This document shows, piece after piece, positions 2,045-33,736 of a DNA stretch of 64,000 nt. Source of the DNA: Promethearchaeota archaeon (GTDB taxonomy: Archaea > Asgardarchaeota > Lokiarchaeia > Sigyniarchaeales > SOKP01); assembly GCA_030603385.1 (NCBI GenBank), contig JAUVXW010000019.1, positions 1 through 64,000 on the forward strand. The letters are read 5' to 3'. Each line of letters starts with the position of its first letter. Position 1 is the stretch's first letter. The position numbers were made by a program, and so were the translations under genes. The notes beneath the pieces are model-generated. The model was not told where the DNA came from. It saw only the letters and a list, made by a program, of their open reading frames with translations, and made no database searches.

Positions 2045-2654
2045 ATGGGACGTCGTAAAAGAAAACAAGCTGCACCAAAAAGGGTTAAAAGAGTACCTAA
2101 GATCTTCACCTGCCCAGATTGATAAAATTGATTCCCGATTTTTCATGGATTGCGGTGAAAAGAGTGTTAAAGTTACTGATATTAAGAAAAAAGGTGCTTT
2201 TGCAACCGTAAAGTGCGGAAATTGCAGTCTAACAAAACAGGTATTAGTTAATTCTATTTCAGAACCAGTTGATGCCTTTGGAGATTTTATAGATATTTTT
2301 TATGCAGATCAAGAGATCCAAAGGTTAGAGAAGCGAAATCATAAATTAAAAGATGAGAATGAATGGGGAGAACTTGCGTTTTCTTACTCAATTTTATCAG
2401 ATCTTTGCAAAACCAAAGCTGCAATATTATTGGAAGAAGAAGATGTTAACCTGGAAGAAGTGAATGATTGGAAAATAAGAAGTGAGTATTATAAAAACCT
2501 TGAAAAAGATGCGCTTTTGAAACTTGAAACGGATGAATTAGAGAGAGGAGTAAGAACAGATGAAGAATCATTATTCGCTGAAAGCGATACAAAAATAAAA
2601 AAAGAAAGAAAAATAGACGATATATTTGATGATCCCGGTTTTCTAGAATTTTAA
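2045..2654 (+). CDS. elf1: Transcription elongation factor Elf1 with a C-terminal acidic extension; spliced gene, join(2045..2119,2151..2654), 192 aa
   Basis: Exon 1 MGRRKRKQAAPKRVKRVPKIFTCPD plus exon 2 CGEKSVKV...VKCGNCSL...SEPVDAFGDFID gives the Elf1 signature (basic N-terminus, FTCPxC, CxxC, EPVD). SD-like AGGAGA at 2031-2036. Confidence 0.9.
2120..2150 (+). other. Candidate 31-nt bulge-helix-bulge-type intron in elf1 mRNA
   Basis: Exon-exon stem TTCACC(T)GC/GCGGTGAA; central helix CCAG/ATGG with one G.A; 3-nt bulges ATT at 2118-2120 and 2149-2151; inner hairpin GA(T)AAAATTG-ATTCC-CGATTTTTC. Cutting after the 2nd nt of each bulge restores the frame. Confidence 0.8.
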
Positions 2655-18387: not shown

Positions 18388-19878
18388 TTGATTAATAATT
18401 TTAAGATGAATGTAAATAAAGTTGGGGAGAATATTTACGAGATCCCTCCTAAGACTTTGATGGCAAGGATTCAAGGGAATATAGAGAAGTTCCAGATGAG
18501 AGTTCCTGTTAGAATTTATGCAAACAACTATATATTAGAAAAGATAAAACAGGATCGCACATTAGATCAAATAGCTAATGTAGCTTGTTTGCCAGGAATA
18601 CAGAAACATGCTATTGTGTTATCTGATGCCCATCAAGGATATGGATTTTGTATAGGTGGAGTTGCTGGAACTGATGCCGAGACGGGAATGATTTCTCCTG
18701 GAGGTGTTGGTTATGATATTAATTGCGGTGTACGTTTATTAAGAACAAATTTATTTCTCAACGACATTAAAAAGGTGCTTCCAAATTTATTAACCAATAT
18801 TTTTAATAAGATCCCTTCTGGTTTAGGTTCAAAAGGTAAATTAACTATAAATTATTCTGACTTAGATAACGTTTTGAATAACGGAGTGAACTGGGCTTTA
18901 GAAAAGGGGTATGCAATTGAAGAAGACATAAAACATTTAGAAGAAAACGGATGTTTAAAGAATGGTAATGCAGATTTAGTATCTCAGAAAGCAAAGCAAA
19001 GAGCGATTAAACAACTTGGCTCTTTAGGAAGTGGAAATCATTTTCTTGAAATCCAAAAAGTAGATCAGATTTATAATAAGACAATTGCAGAAAAATTAGG
19101 AATAACTGAAAAAAATCAAATAACTGTAATGGTTCATACAGGAAGTAGAGCATTAGGTCATCAAGTTTGTACAGATAGTTTACGAAATATCGAACAAGCA
19201 ATGAAAAAATATAAAATTAGAGTACCAGATAGAGAACTTGCCTGTGTGCCAGCAGATACACCTGAAGCACAAAATTATTTACAGCAGATGGCATGTGCTG
19301 CCAATTTTGGTTTCACTAATCGTCAGTTGATAACTTATTGGTTAAGAGAATCCTTTCAAAATGCATTTAATAAAGATGTTGATGCATTAGATATGCATAT
19401 GATTTATGGAGTTTGTCATAATATTCTAAAAATAGAAGAACACAAAATAAATGGTAAAAAAATGAAACTGAATGTCCATCGTAAAGGTGCAACAAGAGCA
19501 TTTCCACCAAACCACCCTGCGTTACCTCAAGATTATAAAGATATTGGTCAACCAGCCTTTATTCCTGGAACTATGGGATCTGCTTCATATTTATGTGTGG
19601 GTAAACCAAAAGCTATGGAATTATCTTTTGGATCTACTGCTCATGGTTCTGGTCGTTTAATGTCTAGATCGAAGGCTATAAAAAGATATTGGGGTACTAA
19701 AGTAAAAGAAGATCTAAGAAAGAAAGGTATTTTAGTAAAAAGTGCTTCTATGAAGGTTTTAGCTGAAGAAAGTCCTGGAGCTTACAAAGATATTGATCAA
19801 GTAGTTCAAGTAAGTCATGATCTAGGAATTGTCGAAAAAATTGTAAGGCTTGTTCCAGTAGGGGTTGTAAAAGGGTAA
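18388..19878 (+). CDS. rtcB: RNA-splicing ligase RtcB
   Basis: DAHQGYGF, GVGYDINCG, GSGNHF, HTGSR, HRKGATR, STAHGSGR, EESPGAYK. Confidence 0.97.
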   Translation: MINNFKMNVNKVGENIYEIPPKTLMARIQGNIEKFQMRVPVRIYANNYILEKIKQDRTLDQIANVACLPGIQKHAIVLSDAHQGYGFCIGGVAGTDAETGMISPGGVGYDINCGVRLLRTNLFLNDIKKVLPNLLTNIFNKIPSGLGSKGKLTINYSDLDNVLNNGVNWALEKGYAIEEDIKHLEENGCLKNGNADLVSQKAKQRAIKQLGSLGSGNHFLEIQKVDQIYNKTIAEKLGITEKNQITVMVHTGSRALGHQVCTDSLRNIEQAMKKYKIRVPDRELACVPADTPEAQNYLQQMACAANFGFTNRQLITYWLRESFQNAFNKDVDALDMHMIYGVCHNILKIEEHKINGKKMKLNVHRKGATRAFPPNHPALPQDYKDIGQPAFIPGTMGSASYLCVGKPKAMELSFGSTAHGSGRLMSRSKAIKRYWGTKVKEDLRKKGILVKSASMKVLAEESPGAYKDIDQVVQVSHDLGIVEKIVRLVPVGVVKG

Positions 19879-30188: not shown

Positions 30189-31202
30189 ATGTCGGTTGAT
30201 CGAGATAAACTAGAAGCATTGCTAAAGTGGTATAAACAGGACATTGGAAAACATTTGATTGCTACTATTATTGTAAATAGAGAAGGATTAGTAATGGCCG
30301 CTCTAAAAGGAGATTCAGAAACAGAAGTAGAAGAAGATGTAATTGGGGGTGTTACTGCATTAGTAGAGCCTGTTCTAACTAGAATCACTGAAGAATTCAG
30401 TTCAGGTGCCTTCGGAACAGGTACGTTTGATACAGAAGAACATCGGATTATTTTTTGCGAAGCAGGACCTGAAGCAATTTTGGTTACTGTTTTAGATTCG
30501 ATTGCTATGGTCGATCCAATTTTTCCATATGCTTATTTAGCTGCAGAGAAGATCGCCCGAATTTTTGATGGAAGAACAGTAAGTCCTGTAATTCCTAAAC
30601 TGATTTTAGATCAAAATGTTCAAAATATTGAAAGAAAAATAGATAAACTTCAAAAGATTAAAGTAAAATCAGGAGAGTACGCATATAAACTAATTTTAGG
30701 GGGTGAAGGAGGAGTAGGTAAAACTAGTATGGTTCATCGTTTTGTAGAAAACTCATTTCAAGCTGATTATAAATCCACAATAGGAACCTCAATAATGAAA
30801 AAAGAATGCGATTTTGAAGGTTTAGAATCAAAAGTCCGTTTTGTCCTTTGGGATTTGGCAGGACAAGCTCAATTTAAGCGTGTAAGACAATCATATTTAT
30901 CGAGTGCTGAAGCTGGTATTTTGGTTTATGATGTGACTCGTAAAGATACTTTTGAAAGTATAGAAAATTGGTTTAATGAAATAAAAAATGTTTCACCGAC
31001 AATATCCTTAATCTTAGTAGGAAATAAAATAGATTTGACAGAAGATAGGTTTATTTCAACTGAAACTGGAGAGGAGCTGGCAAAAAGACTAAATCTTTCT
31101 TATATTGAAACATCAGCAAAAACAGGGGAAAACATTAATGATGCATTTAAAATGCTTGCCTTACAAATAATAAAACAATATGTTTTTACTGAGGAAGTGT
31201 AA
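30189..31202 (+). CDS. Roadblock/LC7 domain fused to a Rab-like small GTPase
   Basis: N-terminal IIVNREGLVMAA roadblock pattern; GEGGVGKT, WDLAGQ, NKID, ETSAK. Confidence 0.9.
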   Translation: MSVDRDKLEALLKWYKQDIGKHLIATIIVNREGLVMAALKGDSETEVEEDVIGGVTALVEPVLTRITEEFSSGAFGTGTFDTEEHRIIFCEAGPEAILVTVLDSIAMVDPIFPYAYLAAEKIARIFDGRTVSPVIPKLILDQNVQNIERKIDKLQKIKVKSGEYAYKLILGGEGGVGKTSMVHRFVENSFQADYKSTIGTSIMKKECDFEGLESKVRFVLWDLAGQAQFKRVRQSYLSSAEAGILVYDVTRKDTFESIENWFNEIKNVSPTISLILVGNKIDLTEDRFISTETGEELAKRLNLSYIETSAKTGENINDAFKMLALQIIKQYVFTEEV

Positions 31203-31206
31203 TTAG

Positions 31207-31296
31207 AGCCTCTGGGGGGAATTGAACCCCCGACCTTCAGATATTTCTTCTACATTTGAATACGAATCTGATGCTATACCACTAAGCTACAGAGGC
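31207..31296 (-). tRNA. tRNA-Thr(CGT) with a canonical 37/38 intron (31243-31260, 18 nt)
   Basis: GCCTCTG/CAGAGGC acceptor; TCAGA-TTCGTA[intron]A-TCTGA; T arm GGGGG-TTCAATT-CCCCC. Confidence 0.92.
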
Positions 31297-32508: not shown

Positions 32509-32612
32509 GGGCTATTGGCGCAGGCAGGTAGCGCAACAGGCTTTTAACCTGAAATTTATGGGGGATCCTCTCATAAAAAGGAAGGTCGGGGGTTCAATTC
32601 CCCTATAGCCCG
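32509..32612 (+). tRNA. tRNA-Lys(TTT) with a non-canonical variable-region intron (32554-32583, 30 nt)
   Basis: GGGCTAT/ATAGCCC+G; CAGG-CTTTTAA-CCTG; insert hairpin TTTATGGGGG/CTCTCATAAA; splicing restores variable loop AGGTC. Confidence 0.9.
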
Positions 32613-32731: not shown

Positions 32732-33736
32732 ATGACATTTTCAGATTTCAAATTACCTTCTGATGAACCTGAGCAATTATTACTCAAATCACAAGATACT
32801 ACCAATCCAAATTATGGATGTGAGCCAGAAAGTAGAAGTATAACAAAGCTTTTACAGTATGGAGTAATAAATTTAGATAAACCAAGTGGTCCAACTAGTC
32901 ATGAAGTGGTATCGTGGGTTCGCAAAGTATTAGGAATCTCAAATGCAGGTCATGGAGGAACTTTAGATCCTAAAGTTACTGGGATATTACCTTGTGCTCT
33001 TGGAAGAGCTACACGAGCTTTATCATCGTTATTGAATGCGGGTAAGGAATATATAGGTGTTCTTTATCTCCATTCTCCTGAAAAATTGATGAGAATCGAA
33101 AAAATATTCAAATTATTCACTAGAAAGATTTATCAAAGACCTCCACTAAAATCATCAGTAGCTAGAAAACTTAGAGTTAGAGAAATATATTATAGTCAAG
33201 TTATTGAAGTGAAGAATAATCATGTTTTATTTAGAATAGGTTGTGAAGCAGGAACTTATATACGAAAATTTTGTTTTGATATTGGAGAAGCTCTTTGTTC
33301 TGGTGCCCATATGCTAGAACTGAGAAGAACTAGAGTTGGAAATTTTACAGAAAATGATAATTTAATTACTCTCCAAAATTTAAAGGATGCCTATACAATT
33401 TATCAATTGGAGAACGACGATCATTATTTAAAAAAGATAATATTTCCAATGGAAAAAATGGTTTCTCATTTACCAAAAATCTATATTCGAGATACAGCTG
33501 TTGATGCTATATGCCATGGTGCAGATTTAGCTTCAGCGGGTATTTGTCATATTGATGCTAGAATAAAACCTAACTTGTTAGTTGCCATAATGACCTTGAA
33601 AAAAGAGTTAATCGGATTTGGTACTTCATTAAAAAATGCTATGCAAATGTACAAAGCTAAATCGGGTATATTAGTAAAAGCAAATAAAGTTTTTATGGAG
33701 AGGGGATTATACCCTCGATGGAATGAAAAAAAATAG
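32732..33736 (+). CDS. cbf5: H/ACA RNA-guided pseudouridine synthase Cbf5
   Basis: LDKPSGPTSHEV, GHGGTLDPKVTG, YQRPP, GTYIR, PUA domain. Confidence 0.96.
   Translation: MTFSDFKLPSDEPEQLLLKSQDTTNPNYGCEPESRSITKLLQYGVINLDKPSGPTSHEVVSWVRKVLGISNAGHGGTLDPKVTGILPCALGRATRALSSLLNAGKEYIGVLYLHSPEKLMRIEKIFKLFTRKIYQRPPLKSSVARKLRVREIYYSQVIEVKNNHVLFRIGCEAGTYIRKFCFDIGEALCSGAHMLELRRTRVGNFTENDNLITLQNLKDAYTIYQLENDDHYLKKIIFPMEKMVSHLPKIYIRDTAVDAICHGADLASAGICHIDARIKPNLLVAIMTLKKELIGFGTSLKNAMQMYKAKSGILVKANKVFMERGLYPRWNEKK

Follow-up and report, generated by a model that had tools for sequence, protein, structure and literature searches.

The tRNA-Lys(UUU) gene of a Promethearchaeota archaeon is interrupted in its variable region, which raises the question of whether the interruption is a genuine intron and, if so, what its likeness to an insert in the protein-coding gene elf1 of the same contig means. 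A preliminary description of this DNA had noted that both inserts share the same relaxed bulge-helix-bulge (BHB) geometry. It drew two consequences from this: that, if the tRNA is functional, the endonuclease of the organism tolerates exactly the deviation seen in the elf1 motif, and that introns may have moved between tRNA and mRNA genes. Marck and Grosjean are said to have described, in 2003, non-canonical tRNA introns with relaxed (HBh'-type) motifs. Relaxed introns outside the canonical site occur in the tRNA genes of Thermoproteales/Crenarchaeota and of Asgard archaea (PMC4090602; preprint 10.64898/2026.10.13.758758). The reading that we favour here, and consider probable, is that the Lys insert is a genuine tRNA-type intron with a relaxed motif, and that its likeness to the elf1 insert is generic, the mark of a permissive enzyme and not of common descent or transfer.

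The window (the whole 64,000-nucleotide stretch that we analysed) is part of contig C39 in an assembly of 3.89 Mb and 31% G+C. The nearest relatives of the genome's EndA gene belong to MAGs labelled Promethearchaeia/Promethearchaeota (Loki-type Asgard archaea). The Rfam model RF00005 finds two tRNAs in the window, tRNA-Thr(CGU) and tRNA-Lys(UUU), and has 23 matches in the genome (G000) as a whole; an added scan for T-arms and acceptor stems brings the catalogue to about 27 genes. That being the number detectable in a 3.9-Mb genome that is 94% complete, our tabulation of introns is incomplete. Many tRNA genes are probably masked by multiple introns or by introns in the T-arm, and tRNA genes with either are known from other Asgard families (preprint 10.64898/2026.10.13.758758). 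Three multi-intron genes were recognised, all on the minus strand: C10:63913-64045 (133 nt), C41:50637-50822 (186 nt) and C30:130962-131100 (139 nt). The first encodes tRNA-His and has a clear 29-nt canonical intron; near positions 8-16 it has another insert, of 31-33 nt and with ambiguous borders. The first tRNA-His intron and the introns of the other two genes were ambiguous and were left out of the tabulation.

Some neighbouring observations are recorded for completeness. The ORF at 30189-31202 of the window appears, from its translation, to be a fusion of a Roadblock/LC7-like N-terminal half with a small Ras/Rab-like GTPase, an Asgard-typical gene. Elsewhere in the genome two tRNAs are unusual: G000:C19:24438-24521 is a tRNA-like gene of 84 nt whose anticodon is ACC and whose variable arm is long, and G000:C41:48217-48304 is an 88-nt tRNA with the selenocysteine-like anticodon UCA.

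Table 1. Features discussed in the text. Coordinates are those of the window unless preceded by a genome, contig or locus handle.
Feature	Position	Strand	Remarks
tRNA-Lys(UUU) gene	32509-32612	+	Rfam RF00005, 53.6 bits; 31-column insert in the variable region
tRNA-Lys exons	5' 32509-32553; 3' 32584-32612	+	mature length 74 nt
tRNA-Lys 30-nt intron	32554-32583	+	variable loop, between Sprinzl positions 44 and 45
CCUG, 5' strand of central helix	32548-32551	+	positions 39-42; doubles as 3' strand of the anticodon stem
5' bulge A-A|A	32552-32554	+	cut after 32553; register from intronless orthologues
Intron hairpin (helix h')	32555-32577	+	9-10 bp, loop of 3-5 nt; present in the minimum-free-energy fold
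AAGG, 3' strand of central helix	32578-32581	+	A32578 opposite G32551 (G.A)
3' bulge A-A|G	32582-32584	+	cut after 32583; no exon-exon helix behind it
tRNA-Thr(CGU)	31207-31296	-	18-nt canonical 37/38 intron at 31243-31260; 1.2 kb upstream of Lys
elf1 exon 1	2045-2119	+	ends ...FTCPD; Pfam PF05129 positions 1-27
elf1 31-nt insert	2120-2150	+	its removal restores CPDCGEK
elf1 exon 2	2151-2300	+	PF05129 positions 15-77, 41.8 bits; checked over the Pfam match
elf1 BHB	central helix 2114-17 with 2145-48; bulges 2118-20 and 2149-51	+	
elf1 BHB, outer parts	exon-exon helix 2110-13 with 2152-55; hairpin 2121-2144	+	
RtcB RNA ligase gene	18568-19875	+	PF01139, 558 bits; full length; only copy found in the genome
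EndA alpha subunit	L008:1453-2049	-	contig C44; closest to 3P1Z_B (A. pernix catalytic subunit), E 8e-36
EndA beta paralogue	L009:1438-2040	-	contig C9; catalytic His replaced
Sister tRNA-Lys loci with T-loop intron	G021:C5:28230-28400; G032:C102:860-1030; G008:C105:19400-19570		

The tRNA-Lys(UUU) gene carries a tRNA-type intron in its variable loop

The borders of the insert follow from two observations. With a cloverleaf scorer of our own, the Lys gene reached its top score (29), with anticodon UUU, upon deletion of 30 nt after precursor position 45, which is Sprinzl position 44 because the D-loop has nine bases. The 104-nt gene was compared by BLAST with 60 relatives; of the 36 that belong to the same genus, at least 30 have a full-length, intron-bearing orthologue, 88-95% identical. 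Three genomes (G012, G030 and G033) have instead a 74-nt intronless gene, in which the sequence runs ...CCUGAC|GGUC... and precisely the 30 nt are missing. The borders given by these intronless orthologues are the sites predicted by the BHB register, and they make exact the non-canonical position of about 44/45 that had been proposed for the intron of tRNA-Lys(TTT). ARAGORN, run with introns allowed, wrongly placed a 19-nt intron at 39 and was replaced by our scorer; on variants spliced in silico it returned false solutions, for example by taking the intron hairpin for a T-arm.

The helix that frames the insert, CCUG:AAGG (CCTG:AAGG in the DNA), is present as the preliminary description had it, with C-G, C-G and U-A followed by a G.A beside the 5' bulge. 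The interval then singled out, 32548-32587, covers the motif, of which the intron itself is the part from 32554 to 32583. With three of four central pairs standard and the first outer pair unpaired, the motif departs from the strict hBHBh' form, for which we required four standard central pairs, two 3-nt bulges and an outer helix on either side. It belongs to the relaxed HBh' or bulge-helix-loop form, which we defined by at least one 3-nt bulge flanked by a central and an outer helix and at least three of four central pairs; the intron of this genome has the 3-nt bulge, the flanking helices and three of the four pairs.

Such a motif carries little weight by itself. We counted 281 relaxed BHB shapes in the 128-nt region of the Lys precursor, and dozens more inside ordinary coding sequence; because these shapes arise by chance in an A+T-rich genome, the relaxed motif alone is not significant. 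What establishes the intron is the agreement of the register with evidence obtained apart from it. Removal of the insert restores the cloverleaf at borders that owe nothing to the motif, and the intron hairpin, in the same register, covaries: across 31 distinct sequences 92% of cells are paired, with compensatory changes at two pairs. The Lys insert is a genuine archaeal intron of the tRNA type.

Taken alone, the intron is nothing unusual for a lineage in which non-canonical tRNA introns are already familiar. Like the relaxed introns of crenarchaeal and Asgard tRNA genes, it is short, lies outside 37/38, has a 3-nt bulge between central helix and hairpin and lacks one outer helix, and its lineage has an (alpha-beta)2 EndA with the specificity loop. 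It is no different from them in kind and adds a further example from a genus of Promethearchaeia. Our literature search did not find this variable-loop intron locus of tRNA-Lys(UUU) described.

The elf1 gene carries a BHB-type insert present in some relatives and absent in others

In elf1 the Pfam match to the Elf1 zinc ribbon is split across two frames at about position 2119. The 31-nt insert at this point and its central helix CCAG:AUGG (CCAG:ATGG in the DNA), in which C-G, C-G and A-U are followed by a G.A at the same position as in Lys, were confirmed as first described. The insert occupies the same site in ten of 30 same-genus orthologues and is exactly absent from the remaining 20. Among the ten that bear it, the hairpin has compensatory changes at five of nine pairs, the exon-exon helix is 100% paired, and the third base of the Pro codon covaries with its partner in the intron, from A-U to U-A (exon-intron central pair 17:48). 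All ten have exactly one central mismatch, whose place varies: G000, G004 and G003 have it as a G.A beside the 5' bulge, six others as a C.C or C.U at the second pair, and G026 as a C.A at the first pair. In the plain minimum-energy fold of this genome's elf1, G2117 shifts into the bulge and 32 nt would be excised, breaking the frame, so that in-frame splicing needs the register with the G.A.

The insert could in principle be skipped by the ribosome, in the style of phage T4 gene 60, in which case it would not be spliced and tolerance by the endonuclease would not be needed there. In this genome a GAUUG direct repeat flanks the insert; the take-off codon would be GAU, with a UGA stop directly after it and then a hairpin, and landing would be on GAU again. 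G027-type orthologues similarly read GAA / UGA / GAA. We nevertheless find bypass scarcely credible and rejected it on two orthologues, since the take-off and landing codons of G004 differ (GAA and GAU), and in G026 landing on GAA would resume translation out of frame. The BHB register, by contrast, works in all ten orthologues, and the covariation at 17:48 and the six other BHB inserts of this kind in protein genes of the genome also speak for splicing.

Splicing of the elf1 insert would have a precedent in the intron of the cbf5 pre-mRNA of Desulfurococcales and Sulfolobales, which is of BHB type, is often relaxed, is gained and lost among relatives and has been explained by a heterotetrameric endonuclease of relaxed specificity (Yokobori 2009, PMC2738675). 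The preliminary description argued in the same way for elf1. Both are BHB-type inserts in coding sequence with a relaxed motif and a patchy presence among relatives. They differ in host gene and in lineage, which here is Asgard. The cbf5 gene is the one archaeal protein gene known from publications to have a BHB intron, in Crenarchaeota; in this genome it lies directly downstream of tRNA-Lys (32732-33736) and is itself an uninterrupted ORF of 334 codons.

The shared G.A lies within chance expectation

We assembled a curated set of 18 introns of this genome with unambiguous solutions, 11 from tRNA genes and seven from mRNAs. The mRNA introns lie in histone, RNase HII, proteasome-alpha and elf1 genes and were located where a Pfam match was split; for the six outside elf1 the borders are those of the best-scoring BHB among the ORF-restoring options, which may overstate the perfection of their helices. 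A genome-wide scan for ORF-restoring BHB hairpins was also tried and set aside as noise. It gave 286,762 structural candidates, 5,885 of them past the ORF filter, with no peak in length; gene junctions and A+T-rich hairpins were their source, and the scan would miss elf1, whose hairpin has a bulge.

Four central pairs are present in 12 of the 18 curated introns, and a single central mismatch in the other six. Three of these six have a G.A beside the 5' bulge: Lys, elf1 and tRNA-Thr(CGU), whose central helix is UUCG:AGAA and whose orthologue in G003 has a G.U at the same pair. At this pair 11 of the 18 introns have G on the 5' strand, and A, at 36%, is the commonest intron base, so that G.A is the mismatch most to be expected here. 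The G.A shared by Lys and elf1 lies within chance expectation. All three window introns have it and none of the 15 other curated introns does, a distribution that looks non-random but is a post hoc observation on small numbers. The possibility that CCNG is a preferred target for insertion was rejected, only two of the 18 introns having this motif.

The Lys motif also varies among relatives. In 31 distinct orthologues the 3' strand of the central helix reads AAGA in 20, AAGG in nine (this genome included), and UAGG and GAGG in one each. The outermost pair is C-G in 11 and C.A in 20, and the two middle pairs are invariant; the pair beside the 5' bulge is non-standard in 30, as G.A in 29 and G.G in one, and is G.U in G002. 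Only two standard central pairs are left in the 20 AAGA sequences, where the relaxed definition is strained.

The 'same relaxed geometry' of the preliminary description is an exact match as far as this genome goes. As a specific link between Lys and elf1 the match fails: Thr(CGU) has the same G.A, the mismatch of elf1 moves among its orthologues, and most Lys orthologues add a C.A. The likeness is real in this genome but generic, the product of a permissive enzyme and A-rich introns. Where chance BHB shapes are as common as they are in an A+T-rich genome, the motif likeness of two introns is not evidence that they are related.

The only tRNA-Lys(UUU) gene found points to a tolerant endonuclease

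Whether the Lys intron is informative about the enzyme depends on whether its gene functions. AAA is the most used codon of the genome, making up 6.1% of all codons and 78% of those for Lys in a count over 909 long ORFs. The preliminary description had recognised that another tRNA-Lys(TTT) elsewhere would undercut its argument; no second tRNA with a UUU anticodon was found in the genome by covariance model, BLAST or T-arm scan. It seems to us extremely improbable that the interrupted gene is a non-functional copy and so uninformative on what the enzyme tolerates. The incompleteness of the assembly and the many undetectable tRNA genes do leave room for a hidden copy, and pair 27:43 (window positions 32535 and 32552) is mismatched, as A.A here and G.A in relatives. 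But intronless orthologues share this mismatch, the exons are almost invariant in the 31 distinct orthologues while the intron loop varies freely, and the gene keeps its place beside cbf5 and thiL in relatives.

EndA is present in the genome as two paralogues. The alpha subunit retains the catalytic Tyr, His and Lys, and its K-P-R loop aligns identically with residues 44-46 of 3P1Z_B (K44-P45-R46). It is like A. pernix EndA (3P1Z) in conserving the equivalents of K44 and R46 and in having a second, non-catalytic paralogue beside it. Of 24 genus genomes, 22 have both this beta paralogue and alpha, and the two also occur together in every other genus searched, closed single-contig genomes among them; beta is therefore not contamination. 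Asgard EndA has been reported as (alpha-beta)2 with an L1 loop (PMC5829648), and by homology we predict that the enzyme here is likewise of the broad-specificity (alpha-beta)2 type with a specificity loop, which supplies the EndA type that the preliminary description had left to be identified. The Crenarchaea-specific loop of A. pernix EndA gives a broad substrate range (Hirata 2011, PMC3241643; PDB 3P1Z), and EndA enzymes with a specificity loop cut bulge-helix-loop substrates (PMC3241643). In a literature search we found no test of a G.A inside the central helix for any EndA. RtcB, the expected exon-joining enzyme, is encoded in the window (Table 1).

The sole Lys(UUU) gene found, the rank of AAA among codons, the near-invariant exons and the retention of G.A in 29 of 31 orthologues together support the view that the enzyme tolerates the Lys deviation, and on this point the reasoning of the preliminary description holds up well. 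A motif at least as imperfect as that of elf1 must be processed efficiently. The Lys intron can serve as an internal control in this sense: an imperfect motif is no argument against the splicing of the elf1 mRNA, or of other mini-introns in protein genes. This backing for elf1 is indirect, and the comparative evidence from elf1 itself is much stronger.

Two conformations of the Lys precursor compete

We infer that the Lys precursor is cleaved, and cleaved by this EndA, and the conformation proposed for the cut is likewise a prediction. The 5' site would be a helix-bulge-helix made up of a weak central helix (two to three standard pairs and the G.A), a 3-nt bulge and the hairpin of 9-10 bp. The 3' site would lie within A-rich sequence that no exon-exon helix follows. 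CCUG can pair either as the 3' strand of the anticodon stem or as the 5' strand of the central helix, and the two uses compete. In constrained folds the BHB-like and cloverleaf conformers differ by between -2.5 and +2.0 kcal/mol, with the BHB-like form ahead by a small margin in this genome and behind in the AAGA orthologues, which are the majority. Because its exon side is invariant, the central helix offers no covariation among the 31 orthologues, and with only two standard pairs it may fail to form in the 20 that read AAGA.

These properties allow a different account, in which the G.A 'pair' of Lys is physically absent. The precursor would keep its cloverleaf, and the four perfect pairs of the anticodon stem, CAGG:CCUG, would adjoin a 5' bulge made of A43, N44 and the first intron base, with the intron hairpin beyond it; cleavage at the 3' site would be independent and in a loop (bulge-helix-loop mode), and the likeness to elf1 would be an artefact of how the motif is drawn. 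Consistent with this, the anticodon stem is retained when 33 precursors are folded to a consensus, and the CCUG:AAGR helix is not. In the orthologues with AAGA, 20 in number, the cloverleaf is the more stable by about 1 to 2.5 kcal/mol, and among 31 sequences central pair 40:73 is unpaired in 20 and 43:70 in 30. EndA enzymes with a specificity loop also cleave bulge-helix-loop substrates (PMC3241643). Against it, the cut sites lie exactly four stacked positions apart around CCUG:AAGR, as the ruler of a dimeric enzyme expects. The BHB-like fold is the minimum-energy fold in this genome, is equally or slightly more stable both here and in 10 of 11 other orthologues with G at column 73, and becomes a full four-pair helix, with a G.U, in G002. 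We regard the cloverleaf account as possible but rather unlikely, and retain the BHB-like conformation as the one that would be cut.

The Lys and elf1 introns show no sequence relatedness

The remaining claim of the preliminary description was that the likeness hints at intron movement between tRNA and mRNA genes. Had the two introns a common ancestor, or had one been copied from the other, the CCNG:ANGG core with its G.A would be a family signature. The two are indeed of one length class (30 and 31 nt) and share the mismatch and the layout of bulge and hairpin, and more broadly the lengths of non-canonical tRNA introns (27-30 nt) and of mRNA introns (29-32 nt) put the two in a single size class. 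The sequences, by contrast, give no sign of relatedness. In global alignment the Lys and elf1 introns score z = -0.2, at rank 92 of 153 pairs, and nhmmer profiles of 33 Lys introns and of nine elf1 introns, searched against the genome, matched only themselves, the next best matches having E values of about 0.2-1. A few other pairs reached z of about 3 (Lys with Pro UGG, Lys with histone intron 2, elf1 with histone intron 1); these are not interpreted, because the shuffling null destroys hairpin symmetry. The CCNG strand, moreover, is exon in both hosts, belonging to the anticodon stem in one and to Pro plus Asp/Glu codons in the other, so it could not have been transferred with an intron.

Copies elsewhere in the genomes were sought with a degenerate Lys-intron pattern (up to three mismatches). 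It matched in 41 of 54 genus genomes, nearly always once and at the Lys locus; the extra matches come from tRNA-Lys duplicates, two of them Lys(CUU) genes with a homologue of the intron, and a backwards control pattern gave a similar count of stray matches. Apart from these duplicated genes, the Lys intron occurs once per genome. Introns of at least 70-80% identity in different hosts, the mark of a mobile intron family, were found in these searches for neither the Lys nor the elf1 intron. Transposition of introns between tRNA genes has been described in Thermoproteales (Fujishima 2010, as cited in preprint 10.64898/2026.10.13.758758), where the evidence consists of closely similar introns in different hosts, and evidence of that kind is absent for Lys and elf1. 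For Asgard archaea the same preprint found no copying between tRNA genes and does not mention mRNA introns (10.64898/2026.10.13.758758). We consider shared ancestry or copying very unlikely, and the claim of movement is not borne out.

The favoured reading, of a generic likeness, leaves the size classes to be accounted for. Canonical 37/38 introns are 17-29 nt long, with short hairpins and long exon helices, whereas non-canonical tRNA introns and mRNA introns have long hairpins and weak exon helices; canonical and mRNA introns differ at p = 0.0016, on small samples. From this pattern one could propose that the hairpin introns of about 30 nt that sit outside the canonical tRNA site (at 44/45 in Lys, near position 26 in Pro and, in sister species, in the T-loop of Lys) and the 29-32-nt introns of protein genes stem from one insertion process. 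We offer this as a speculation that is quite unlikely to be correct. If true, it would mean that a single class of mini-intron colonises tRNA and mRNA genes, distinct from the older canonical 37/38 introns, and that relaxed central helices are tolerated in both kinds of host.

Introns turn over at the Lys locus within one genus

Three sister genomes, G021, G032 and G008, have a tRNA-Lys(UUU) gene without the 44/45 intron and with another 30-nt intron in the T-loop. The motif of this T-loop intron is a perfect hBHBh': its central helix is UUCA:UGAA, both bulges are present, the T-stem serves as outer helix, and the hairpin starts with 5 bp. The Lys(CUU) genes provide some further cases. Extra tRNA-Lys(CUU) genes with a homologue of the 44/45 intron are present in the sister genomes G034 (C351) and G001 (C410), so the intron was carried along in a tRNA gene duplication or a change of anticodon. 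A Lys(CUU) gene at G025:C40:171646-171847 has a different intron at about 37/38, and that of G000 (C17:35957-36030) is intronless.

The intronless Lys(UUU) genes of the genus may retain a trace of the intron. Every gene of the genus, intron-bearing or not, has A43, the first base of the 5' bulge, opposite G27 or A27, whereas in three genomes of other genera the Lys gene is intronless and has U or C at position 43. Judged from this distribution of bases, A43 in the intronless genes could be the footprint of precise intron loss.

Within one genus the Lys locus displays intron turnover, having a relaxed intron at 44/45, a perfect one in the T-loop, or none, and it offers a handy natural series for probing what the Asgard endonuclease accepts.
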